This document shows, in pieces, positions 21,001 to 24,000 of a DNA stretch of 28,831 bases. The stretch is from a virus. Its lineage: Duplodnaviria > Heunggongvirae > Uroviricota > Caudoviricetes. The first letter of the stretch is position 1, and the number at the start of each line of letters is the position of its first letter. The position numbers were made by a program. The stretch is taken from IMG/VR virus record IMGVR_UViG_2534681660_000015. One strand, 5' to 3'.

Positions 21001-24000
21001 CGCCACCAATCCAGAAGACAACAGGCTCATAGAAACGCTTACCTTTCCACTCACCGCCATATTTACCATCAGCAGGATAGCCTTTTGTGCCAGGATAACG
21101 CCCGGTAAGGTGAAACGCGACTTCAGCAGCACCAGTAAATGACTTCCCAAGCTGGTTACCAGCCATAAAACATCGCTCTGGATAGTCATGCCCGGCGTCG
21201 ATGAACTCACGCTGTTTGCTGTATGGCGTAAATTCATATAGCAGGTGTGTGTTCCGGTAGTTCTCTTCTTCTTCGAGTAGCTCGAGCAATTCGATTTGCT
21301 CTTCGTCGCTCAGGTTATCAAGAATCGCGTCCAGTTCCACGGTTGAATAGCTCCTTGATACGAGAGCGTCGCTTATCGCGATCTCCCTTATCAGGTGTCA
21401 CGTCTTCAACTTGCGACTGCTCTTTGAGGCCCAAATCACGGGCGATGATGTTAGCGTTGAGAAGGTCAGCGGCTGCGCCAGAGAATTTCTGGTCGTAGAT
21501 GATGTCTTCCGCTCGTGATGTGACGTCAGAAAAACCTTCCATTGACCGGAAGGTTCCCCATGTTTGCCTGGTGATATCAAGGAAGGTACACAATCCTGAA
21601 ATAGTCATGGCTCGCATCTTAGGGACATTAGCCTTAATTACTTCTCCCTGATATGAAAATACCTTACCCTCCCATAGCGGGTTATCATCAGCCCACTCGA
21701 AGTATTCACAACAAGCAGCCCACAGCGCATCAGGCGATTCGAATTTAGGATTTCGCCCATGACTACTGCGGGCCTCCCAAAATCGGTTGCCCTTTGGTGC
21801 TGCCATATTCATCTCACTTAGTTGTTATTTCAGGTTGAGCATCATGCTCCGGTAGTGAACAGGTCTAACGCTTCCTTCGATTTACGCACCGCTTCAAATG
21901 TGCGGATCGTGATATCTGAATTAGCGCCACCTGACTGGAAGTGAATTTTGAATAGCTCAAGCTTCAGTTCGTCAGTGCCAATGAATTGAAATGCTTCTTC
22001 TGCGGCTGCGTTCTGGTTCATGACCAGTTTGTAAATCTCTAACTGGAATTTCTGTTCTTCAGTCATGGGAATAATCTCTGCCATTGTTGGCTCCATTTAT
22101 CCGTTAAAAGGGATATCAGTTAAGTTATCCCGTGTAGGGTATAAGCCATTATCAAAGCCACTCTGTAGGGAATGGCTTTTGTGATGGCAATAAAAAAGGC
22201 CGCCTGAGCGACCTGTTAGTTGTTCACAACTTGCATTGTTGAAGGTTCAGCATGTCGAAAAATGATCCGCATTTGGGGGTATTTTCCATTCTTGCCCTCT
22301 CTTCAGCCGCTTTGTAATAAGCCATTGGCCTTTTCACACCATCAGCACCAGTGATGTATTCAACACCTTCCTTCGGATCTTTACTCATAATCCAAACTCT
22401 AGTAGCGACCAAAAGTTGAAATATCTTTAAGAATTTTAATTTGTAAGGTGTTAAGGCGGTATTCTCTTTCCAATTCAGAAAGAATCACATCCTCAGCGAC
22501 ACTATTTCTAGCAGTATCAACTCCTAAGATAATAGCCAATGCCTGCATAAACTTTTTCATCAAAACCTCGTCTAGTTGTTCGTCATAGATTCAGTGGCAG
22601 GCGGTGACGATTCCGCTTTTCGGCAGCTACCCTAGCCACTGTTTTATTCTATCCGATGTCTTTCCATCGGTCCGCCACCACAAAGAATCTTTTTTGCCAT
22701 AAGGCAGGAGGTTCATCTTTCAGTGGCTGCCAGTGTTATTTCCCCACTTACTGGCTTGGGTTGTTTCGCTGTACTGCCGTTAACTGGTGGCCCAGAATAA
22801 ATTCCGGTTTCATTATCAAGCCCACCCGTAAATGGGCTTTGGAATGCCTACATGGTTAAATGATTTGCCAGTCTTCAGCCATCAGGTCGCCAATGGATGG
22901 AACCCATGTAGCAAGGCGGTTCTGTGAGTTTTTCAATACAAGCGTGTCATTGAAAGTTGGCTCGCCAACATATTCGCCAAAGCCATAACCCAACGCAGAC
23001 GCTAATTTTTCCCCTTTCACGAGATAAACAAACTGGTCTTTCCCATTCCATCCTGCCCGCTGCAAACTTTTGCCCTGTTTTAACGCTTCCATGGCAAGGC
23101 CGAAACTTAACCCTGATACCGGACGATAAGCCTTTTCGAATACTTCTTTTGGACTCCAGCTAACGTAGCCATCAAAGCGATCGGTGTTAGGTTTTCCGCC
23201 ATCCAGATATTCAACCAGATAGCCTTCATCCTCGCCGTTTTCTCCGGCAGGAAGCTGCCAGCCACGAAAATCGTTATATGCCTGTCTCGTCATCGGAAAG
23301 GCGTTAATCAGTTTTACGCCAATATGCTGGGTCATAAAATTACCTATAGAGTTGGGAATAAAAAGCCCCGCATCGCGAGGCTCATTAAATGGACTTTGTG
23401 ATTTGCAAAAAAATTATTTCAGGCACTGAGTCCTGATGTACTCCTGCAGGTAGTTAACCTGCGCGGTTATCCTGTCGATTCCGCTTCGGAGACGGTAATA
23501 ATTGAGTTCAGCATCTGCTGTAAGTCTTGGGCTTTCTCCATCGCCCATGCTGCTGGCTCCGGTCGTTGACTTTGCACAGGTGGCGGCGACTTGCAGGCGC
23601 TTACGACCAGCAGAAACATCAGCACGGAGGCTTTCGATAGTCGCGTTAGCATCAGCAAGCTCCTTTGTATATCTGGCGTCGAGTTCTGCTACGTCACGTT
23701 GACGCTTCTGCATATCAGCGATAGTGGATGCGGCTTTGTCGCGCTGCTCTTTGTAGGCGATGGCGTTATCACGGTAATGATTAACAGCCCATGACAGACA
23801 GACGATGATGCAGATAACCAGAGCGGAGATAATCGCGGTTACTCTGCTCATACCTCAATCTCTCTGACCGTTCCGCCTGCTTCTTTGAATTTTGCAATCA
23901 GGCTGTCAGCCTTATGCTCGAACTGACCATAACCAGCGCCCGGCAGTGAAGCCCATATATTGCTGCAACGGTCGATAGCCTGACGGATATCACCGCGATC

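Follow-up and report, generated by a model that had tools for sequence, protein, structure and literature searches.

The window analysed here, a stretch of 28,831 nucleotides (nt) from IMG/VR virus record IMGVR_UViG_2534681660_000015, belongs to a P22-like temperate Escherichia coli phage of the Caudoviricetes with its late genes on the minus strand. Downstream of the lysis genes lie two small open reading frames (ORFs), orfA and orfB, preceded by an int-alpA RNA (RF02996) and followed by an intrinsic terminator (Table 1). A preliminary description had taken this region for a terminator-flanked moron between the lysis genes and terS, carrying a coupled pair of small proteins of the toxin-antitoxin or small anti-defence kind. 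Morons are the stores of host-modifying, defence and anti-defence genes in temperate phages and are usually found singly.

The two small ORFs and their site in the late operon

Several parts of that description hold. The ORFs are adjacent on the minus strand, with exactly 10 nt (AGTTTGGATT) between the TAG stop codon of orfA (22401..22399) and the ATG of orfB, as read from the sequence; in the ORF listing orfA can be extended to a TTG at 22563. They are followed by a clean intrinsic terminator, with a stem-loop at 22214..22197 (seven pairs, five of them G-C, and a loop of four) and then TTTTTATTGC. This sequence, AGGTCGCTCAGGCGGCCTTTTTTATTGC, is a typical member of a terminator conserved across cassette loci. 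The compositional discontinuity is also present, the GC content being 0.36-0.385 over 22300-22599 versus 0.44-0.50 in the flanks.

Other parts need amending. The unit does lie between the lysis genes and terS but adjoins neither, as a DUF2829 gene precedes it and a DUF2560 gene follows. It has a terminator at its 3' end; on the upstream side the adjoining hairpin lacks a U-run, and the nearest terminator-like site, a hairpin with a T-run at 23363-23383 on the minus strand, stands between Rz and the DUF2829 gene. Together with the cassette terminator, this site would bracket the DUF2829 gene plus the cassette inside the late operon. The ~300 bp of non-coding DNA said to lie upstream measure 292 nt (22564-22855) and contain no ORF of note, but they are not empty, holding a -10-like box and the int-alpA RNA. 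They fall into two distinct parts, a backbone spacer (22846..22650) and then the leader (22642..22561).

Table 1. Features of the cassette region and the surrounding phage genes in the window
Feature	Position	Strand	Remark
-10-like hexamer TAGAAT	22646..22651	-	4 nt upstream of the first base of P1; 5/6 matches to TATAAT
int-alpA RNA (RF02996)	22580..22642	-	Rfam covariance model
P1	22641..22635 with 22598..22592	-	three-way junction
P2	~22631..22621	-	three-way junction
P3	22616..22601	-	three-way junction; loop AAUCGUCA at 22612..22605
Site 1, UGACGA	22585..22580	-	complementary to P3 loop; ends the int-alpA span
Hairpin P4	22563..22578	-	CAAC 22578..22575 with GUUU 22566..22563; consensus GUUG
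Site 2, GACGAGG, Shine-Dalgarno	22572..22566	-	in P4 loop; complementary to P3 loop
orfA	22560..22399	-	ATG, 53 aa, MKKFMQALAI...; first cargo gene
Putative fusion scar	22389..22410	-	GGTCGCTAC (terminator 5' half, encodes ..GRY*), TAG, AGTTTGGATT (leader 3'-end remnant)
orfB	22388..22224	-	ATG, 54 aa, MSKDPKEG...; second cargo gene
Cassette terminator AGGTCGCTCAGGCGGCC TTTTTT ATTGC	22187..22214	-	terminator scan; shared with other leader-bearing loci
Boundary hairpin CCGATGGAAAGACATCGG	22653..22670	-	variable region starts just past it
Conserved spacer, ~197 nt	22650..22846	-	shared with HK97, HK022, ST64T and P22-like phages
Hairpin then GATAATG, copy 1 (AAGCCCATTTACGGGTGGGCTT GATAATG)	22812..22839	-	stem 8 bp; just past DUF2829 stop
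Hairpin then GATAATG, copy 2 (AAAGCCATTCCCTACAGAGTGGCTTT GATAATG)	22148..22179	-	stem 9 bp; between terminator and DUF2560
Antiterminator Q	25608..25120	-	first in late-gene order
Two tRNA genes	24876-25028	-	between Q and holin; RefSeq: tRNA-Asn, tRNA-Thr
Lambda-type holin, endolysin, Rz	24631..23414	-	downstream of tRNAs
DUF2829/Tad2-like gene	23335..22856	-	PF11195 match 6.4e-22; directly precedes cassette region
DUF2560 gene	22096..21842	-	follows cassette
P22 gp3-type terS	21812..21318	-	then terL and portal
sar antisense RNA in ant gene region	5969-6035	+	after portal in late-gene order
Tailspike gene			after ant region in late-gene order
Integrase	1-1152	+	adjoins tailspike end of map; vegetative-order layout

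Two ORFs this short could be chance reading frames in AT-rich non-coding DNA, and the very few database relatives of orfA would suit such an origin. Against relatives at 58-96% identity, however, the ratio of nonsynonymous to synonymous substitution rates (dN/dS) ranges over 0.14-0.19 in orfA and 0.10-0.25 in orfB, and dS exceeds 1.7 in distant pairs. Ratios of this size indicate purifying selection on both. In a PHROG search orfA matched phrog_8360 (E=1.6e-41) and orfB phrog_5425 (E=5.4e-43), both over the full length, and RefSeq annotates the two as hypothetical proteins (WP_001704594.1, WP_001386098.1). Homologues of the orfB protein form 19 clusters, and the core EGVEYI.G.D.VKRPM..Y is invariant across 15 sequences. 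For orfA a word-indexed homologue search gave one near-identical cluster and nothing else, and an exhaustive HMMER search gave two relatives at 58% identity. The ATG of orfA falls on the canonical start position of the leader, 78 nt past its core motif. Judged by these comparisons orfA and orfB are genuine protein genes; a chance origin is refuted as far as such evidence allows, and we give it next to no weight.

The spacer upstream of the leader (query positions 5/10-206) was found at 88-97% identity in ~190 phage records and has no Rfam match. Its occurrence in phages with differing DNA packaging makes it part of the backbone rather than of the cassette. The ORF annotated in ST64T as 'orf-118' starts inside it; the window frame enters the int-alpA element and stops after 29 codons. 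Just past the boundary hairpin, the empty sites of HK97, P22, and ST64T read ...GGAAAGACATCGG, TTATTGC and AGAGGCC-hairpin-GA(T/C)AATG... in succession. The window has at this point a full unit, from ATAGAAT to ...GGCGGCCTTTTT, between CATCGG and TATTGCC. The sequence of Huey departs from the shared boundary after GACATC, and Huey, BIS08P22, and Gally carry other cargo at the site. Aligned in this way, the cassette is an insert relative to the empty-site phages, and the presence/absence polymorphism that the preliminary description had proposed to look for is found, together with alternative cargo in other relatives. The leader is encoded in 28 of 5426 complete E. coli genomes, annotated in none, and in 13 of 50,697 isolated-phage records. 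In 2560 E. coli genomes some stretch of the 801-nt region spanning the leader and its flanks was matched, and three complete chromosomes of this species have the 801 nt unchanged. E. coli 90-9280 (NZ_CP024240) and ETEC-2264 carry the identical locus.

Two related copies of a hairpin followed by GATAATG bracket the spacer plus the cassette, and HK97 and P22 have the second even at their empty sites. At four other loci (L010, L012, L039, L255) a hairpin-GATAAT directly precedes int-alpA, providing its -10 box. Covariation in the stems (AAGCCCA/TGGGCTT, CAGGCA/TGCCTG) makes the hairpin before GATAATG seem important in itself. It may be a stem-loop/promoter unit resembling the promoter-early stem-loops (PeSLs) of T4-like phages.

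The int-alpA leader and its alternative pairings

The RNA scored 41.1 bits against RF02996, for which the gathering score is 35.8 (E=2.1e-05 when the whole window was searched, 1.2e-06 with the sub-region), and no other Rfam family matched the leader. The integrase is 21 kb away, so this copy does not have the int/alpA context of the name and lies between the DUF2829 gene and orfA. By score and by junction structure the window leader is still a member of int-alpA, genomic context not being a structural criterion.

To survey other copies we made an exact core-motif scan of viral contigs, which returned at least 120 loci; with a looser pattern, CTAGN{10,14}CGAAAAGCGG, about 60% of the matches were due to chance and were filtered out. 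In all matches listed an ATG stands 75-83 nt past the motif, preceded by GACGAGGUUGU, and the ORF that it opens differs between loci. The leaders comprise 34 classes with different P3 loops, and each loop is complementary to two sites in its own 5' untranslated region (UTR). Site 1 ends ~17-24 nt and site 2 4-9 nt before the start codon, site 2 being the Shine-Dalgarno (SD) region. Examples of loop, site 1, and site 2 are CGUCA/UGACG/GACGA, CCUUCAC/GUGAAGG/UGAAGG, CGCCUU/AAGGCG/AAGGCGG, and CCGUGG/CCACGG/CCACGG. A first test of this complementarity compared the longest matching stretch, G-U pairs included, with that of a shuffled loop. Since a pyrimidine loop will pair with whatever purine-rich SD region it meets, the noise was too great, and the test gave way to a weighted cross-class rank test and to column-based counts. 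In the rank test, the loops of all classes were ranked by complementarity to a given 5' UTR; the loop belonging to that UTR had a median rank of 2.75 of 34 (expected 17.5) and came first in 12 cases. The P4 strands that flank the SD covary as well (CAAC/GUUG, GAAUUAC/GUAAUUC, GUCAC/GUGAC), with a median rank of 5 of 34.

For the column-based counts a covariance model was built with P1-P4 and 80 matches were aligned. The nested helices are 94.8% paired versus 73.6% in shuffled alignments and 33-46% in slid controls, counts that come from an alignment fitted to those same helices. Their covariation score is 0.48 versus 0.11, reached by none of 500 shuffles, although many of the sampled sequences are related and the shuffle counts here and below are not probabilities. 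Changes on both sides of a pair were found in six of seven pairs of P1, two of three of P2, and two of four of P3, with 92-99.7% of cells paired; in P4 all four pairs have compensatory changes and 91% are paired. The columns of the two long-range pairings lie outside the model used for alignment. Pairing of the P3 loop with site 1 (PK1) is at 73.2% versus 61.7% shuffled, with 43 compensatory cells versus 16.5 (0/500), and pairing of the loop with the SD (PK2) at 87.4% versus 73.7%, with 42 compensatory cells versus 10.2 (0/500). Both are well above every slid register and both use identical loop columns. Covariation thus supports mutually exclusive pairings that involve the SD, and one loop with two exclusive partners, the SD among them, is built like a translational switch. 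From enterics to phages of high or low GC content the junction strands CUAG, CGAAAAG, and CCUG do not vary, which suggests a conserved tertiary core or binding site.

Rfam types int-alpA as 'Gene; sRNA', and a trans-acting small RNA (sRNA) whose position before ORFs is incidental would agree with that entry. It is hard to square with the loci themselves: no terminator follows P1 in this subfamily, conservation extends past the SD as far as an ATG whose distance is fixed at every locus listed, and covariation ties the P3 loop to the SD region and the hairpin around it. We consider a trans-acting role very unlikely and a 5' leader the better description.

At one locus of the orfA family (P0021; L262 958-1197) the gene caller translated the leader as a false N-terminal extension (..SSLPAIANIDEQLDEVV-MKKF..), and database peptides of the DEQLDEVVM type may mark unrecognised leaders. 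Tandem leaders were seen in L135 (8870-9330), 340 nt apart and with the first directly after a tRNA gene. Two int-alpA leaders were also seen in L076 (3448-3550 and 6382-6486), with L145 noted in the same set. Leaders precede larger genes as well, which by their sequence motifs appear to include DUF1376-like replication and HNH/AP2-like genes. The occurrence of leaders in tandem and before larger genes suggests a general phage 5' module that is not confined to morons.

Cargo, fusion and proposed expression of the cassettes

Among the matches listed are 84 complete units with at least 26 unrelated cargo families of 44-158 aa. Most of the units hold one ORF, and those with two join families that are also found singly. 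The conserved terminator was found within 1500 nt in 72 of the 99 listed loci with enough downstream sequence; its consensus is (A)GGTCGC-N3-7-G(C/T)G(G/A)CC-T5+, mostly followed by ATTGCC, with GGTCGC-N-GGCGGCC-T6-ATTGCC as the near-invariant form. The median length of a unit in this survey is 335 nt. The frame is present in phages of Escherichia, Salmonella, Klebsiella, Enterobacter, and Edwardsiella. The window leader itself (22642..22561) recurs in Enterobacter Tyrion, Edwardsiella GF-2, Klebsiella ST11-VIM1phi8.2, and Pseudomonas phPA-G, as well as in Vibrio, Pantoea, and Shewanella phages and in Salmonella BIS08P22. In those phages it stands a few bases ahead of a different small ORF, usually inside the late structural operon. 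When orfA, orfB, and 25 other cargo proteins were searched, Pfam gave only DUF551, DUF7336, and DUF7189, NCBIfam added nothing to these, PADLOC recognised none of the proteins, and the PHROGs matched were all families of unknown function. We also considered that cargo ORFs might usually stop inside the terminator loop; this was rejected, with two of 23 sampled families doing so besides the orfA family and one Klebsiella cargo.

A second presence/absence series was found in Klebsiella siphophages, downstream of a Mu-F-like head gene. One phage has the resident terminator alone, and another has a leader, a 58-aa ORF, and its own terminator upstream of the resident one. Others have different cargo and a 5' end that is not int-alpA, with the same 3' terminator module, so that the two end modules are separable. 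This suggests that cargo is exchanged by recombination at the short conserved ends. Tandem cassette-type terminators, own plus resident, occur in three Klebsiella loci (L006 2760-2840, L266, L267) with the linker ATTATCT(G/A)AATTT(A/C)ACAAC; they look like cassettes stacking upstream of a resident terminator.

The genes of the window pair also occur apart. Without orfA, orfB is found in phage Gally (the LF82 prophage) and at five further loci (L250-L254; cluster P0006, 44 contigs), where the leader is mostly deleted and orfB is joined to the leader SD and ATG as a 62-aa protein, MVSVNKDPKEG.... Yersinia prophages likewise have orfB but no orfA, the gene there following what is left of a terminator. 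The relatives of orfA (L262, L263) are single-gene int-alpA cassettes just downstream of Q with no orfB nearby. These end in ..GGTCGCTAA(T/G)GCGGCCTTTTTT, the last codons and the stop lying inside the terminator (..GGT CGC TAA). In the window orfA ends ..GGT CGC TAC TAG, the 5' half of the terminator, and AGTTTGGATT-ATG takes the place of the 3' half. The latter resembles the end of a leader (CTACTAGA--GTTTGGATTATG versus CAACTAGACGAGGTTTTGATG), and other two-ORF cassettes have a similar remnant ahead of the second gene, for example GCGAGGTTGTTATG or GGCGAGGCTGAGATG. A junction of half a terminator with a leader remnant, between genes that occur singly, points to two single-gene cassettes collapsed by a deletion. 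This deletion would have taken away the 3' half of the orfA terminator and, from the orfB cassette, its promoter and three-way junction.

On this comparison orfA and orfB are not a functional couple by origin, which argues directly against an obligate toxin-antitoxin pair. The preliminary description had named such a pair as one option, and two adjacent small ORFs in one unit, translationally coupled across a short gap of 10 nt, would have the layout of an addiction module. Moreover, orfA at 100% identity has so far been found only together with orfB. Against this, the family members occur independently, the junction looks like a fusion scar, and neither ORF has a toxin, antitoxin, or defence match in Pfam, NCBIfam, or PADLOC. 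The predicted models have no helix-turn-helix or ribbon-helix-helix antitoxin fold. A type I toxin would have a transmembrane helix of ~18 or more residues; the hydrophobic stretch of orfA is only ~12 residues (helix residues 2-12), and orfB is polar. A toxin-antitoxin pair is therefore highly improbable.

How the cassette is transcribed bears on whether it is a unit of its own. We scored as a -10 box any hexamer with at least five of six matches to TATAAT that ends 0-7 nt before stem P1. Among the matches listed, 23 of 54 independent upstream contexts have one, against a background of 1.9% (P=1.5e-25). In enteric-type contexts the fraction is 17 of 27. The box frequently has an extended TGn. 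With the box at a fixed distance from P1, the RNA motif would be at the extreme 5' end of the transcript. A sigma-70-like -10 box is missing from roughly half of the contexts, most of them non-enteric, so that a promoter is not an obligatory part of the frame. The ORFs might instead be expressed solely from the Q-antiterminated late transcript, the leader acting as a strong translation-initiation region. The location of cassettes inside late operons would agree with this, as would the lack of a -10-like box in many contexts (GF-2, Klebsiella, and high-GC phages) and the weak box of the window, which a promoter scan did not call. We think it unlikely, given the strong enrichment of a fixed-distance -10 box, often extended, and the conservation of a strong dedicated 3' terminator. 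The double complementarity of the P3 loop is also hard to reconcile with a constitutive ribosome-binding site. The promoter-like box of the window may be active.

The cassette as a whole and its known counterparts

Taken together, the window region is probably a self-contained accessory cassette, a moron with its own -10-like box, leader, cargo, and terminator and with translation gated by the leader. The moron reading of the preliminary description is in this respect supported by the empty sites, the varying cargo at the site, the conserved terminator, and the -10-like box at a fixed distance. The slot that the cassette occupies in the late operon of this P22-like prophage is hypervariable, with a Tad2-like gene on one side and DUF2560/terS on the other. 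The -10-like box would set the transcript start at or beside P1. The int-alpA leader would come next, its P3 loop able to pair with a decoy (site 1) or with the SD (site 2), and the SD would be presented in the P4 loop just ahead of the ATG of the variable cargo, which ends at the near-invariant terminator. Translation would be off when the P3 loop pairs with the SD, and on when it pairs with the decoy in a stack with P4 and so leaves the SD free. In the lysogen transcription would start at the cassette's own weak promoter and end at its own terminator, and during the lytic cycle Q-modified late transcription would continue across the cassette. The sequences show the anatomy, the covariation, the pattern of presence and absence, the independence of the two genes, and the purifying selection; the activity of the promoter, the direction and trigger of the switch, and the roles of the proteins are what we infer.

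Several observations weigh against this interpretation. The TAGAAT box of the window has neither a good -35 nor a TGn, and a two-hexamer promoter scan called nothing on the minus strand near the cassette, TAGAAT included; the absence of the box from about half of the contexts counts on the same side. The leader is rare among complete E. coli genomes. The window copy has changes that weaken helices, a G-G in P2 in place of G-C and a C-U in P4 in place of C-G, and its single-sequence fold is unremarkable (z=-0.85) with a mis-paired junction. To these come the fitting of the alignment to the nested helices that were counted and the relatedness of many of the sampled sequences. Finally, a transcriptome study of LF82 and Gally found no moron in Gally (PMC9928086). 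As the orfB copy of Gally is without promoter and junction and is unannotated, that result is no test of an intact cassette. The BTP1 transcriptome (PMC7067206) covers no intact copy.

The proteins give few clues to their function. Neither orfA nor orfB has a match in Pfam, NCBIfam, or PADLOC, sequence searches of the PDB gave nothing better than E=0.69, and Foldseek searches of the PDB with both AlphaFold2 (AF2) models nothing better than E=1.5. The model of orfA, made from a single sequence, has a short N-terminal helix and a long C-terminal helix, with a predicted local distance difference test score (pLDDT) of 80; the orfB model has a beta-hairpin and two helices (pLDDT 74). The orfA helical hairpin and orfB probably act by binding another protein. 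Within the frame as described, the cargo could be small anti-defence or superinfection-exclusion factors that bind a host or phage protein. The adjoining slot holds the DUF2829/Tad2-like gene (PF11195, 6.4e-22), and this slot is variable in relatives, where GIY-YIG nuclease, Rha, KilA-N, and Gp49-family genes are found. The cargo is small, orphan, and of fast turnover. The hypervariable slot and the Tad2-like neighbour make such a role plausible by association, a case of guilt by neighbourhood. Neither ORF, however, has sequence or structural homology to characterised anti-defence proteins (Acr, Tad, and others) or to known defence proteins, and we regard the role as a tentative possibility, more probably wrong than right. 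In the DUF2829 gene the Tad2-like (Thoeris anti-defence 2) domain is C-terminal, with an N-terminal domain of ~75 aa ahead of it. Elsewhere in the window, a 97-aa ORF at 28517-28810 on the minus strand, near the right end, has a match to an IstB-like ATP-binding (IS21) domain.

The most interesting content of the window is a standard frame of leader, cargo, and terminator, together with a covariation-supported SD switch in a motif typed as an sRNA. If the frame is general, it offers a search key for small unannotated accessory genes in phages of many hosts and gives an orphan Rfam motif a testable function, translational gating by pairing of a loop with the SD. Lambdoid phages would also have a counterpart of the PeSL modules that shuffle genes in T4-like phages. 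The window further cautions that tiny ORFs side by side in a slot of this kind need not be a functional pair and can be independent cassettes that have fused. A bolder proposal, which we think unlikely, is that the int-alpA leader is a riboswitch-like or factor-dependent sensor whose conserved three-way-junction core reads a signal common to many bacteria. It would gate a pan-phage pool of mobile small-gene cassettes, swapped between unrelated phages by recombination at the short conserved ends. Were it true, hundreds of phage accessory proteins that have yet to be characterised, possibly anti-defence or exclusion factors, could be collected by searching for the leader sequence.

The int-alpA motif was found by Weinberg et al. 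2017 (PMC5737381), whose main text does not discuss it. A full-text literature search returned no paper on its function, the sole match (PMC12370729) listing int-alpA merely among predicted sRNAs. The window copy is like the Rfam family in scoring above the gathering threshold and in having the P1/P2/P3 junction and the CUAG, CGAAAAG, and CCUG strands. It differs in being a 5' leader, whereas the Rfam entry is typed sRNA and its 71-position model ends in an unstructured tail, and in adding P4 and the covarying pairing of the P3 loop with site 1 or the SD. In its pyrimidine-rich loop complementary to the SD the leader resembles SD-sequestering riboregulators (riboswitch platforms, RNA thermometers, pseudoknot operators), with the upstream competing copy as an anti-anti-SD and a highly conserved junction core. 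Unlike them it has no known ligand, protein, or temperature dependence, and the direction of its regulation is a prediction.

As an insert in the late operon with a promoter-like box and terminator, patchy presence, and deviant composition, the cassette resembles lambdoid morons in the Hendrix/Juhala definition. Unlike those, it is built on a standard int-alpA leader and terminator frame that recurs in unrelated phages with interchangeable cargo. In P22-like phages an 'ant moron' was discussed for epsilon34, where the ant region is the moron site of the morphogenetic cluster (PMC2629481); that paper notes morons at the ant site only, within this cluster. Like integron gene cassettes, the units are promoter-distal, mostly hold one ORF, end in a conserved hairpin, and appear to stack, as in the tandem terminators of the Klebsiella phages and the fused pair of the window. 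Unlike integrons, there is no integrase or attI beside the arrays, the hairpin is a Rho-independent terminator and not an attC, and each unit has its own leader. Another parallel in layout, a functional analogy only, is with the PeSL cassettes of T4-like phages, in which gene exchange has been attributed to recombination between motifs (PMC2839356, PMC4122927). Both have short conserved promoter and terminator motifs around variable small ORFan genes in hyperplastic regions. The cassettes described here differ in their hosts, which are temperate lambdoid and P22-like phages and other siphophages and podophages, and in their 5' module, which in a PeSL is a promoter beside a stem-loop and here a structured RNA leader, ~85 nt long, with the ribosome-binding site inside it.

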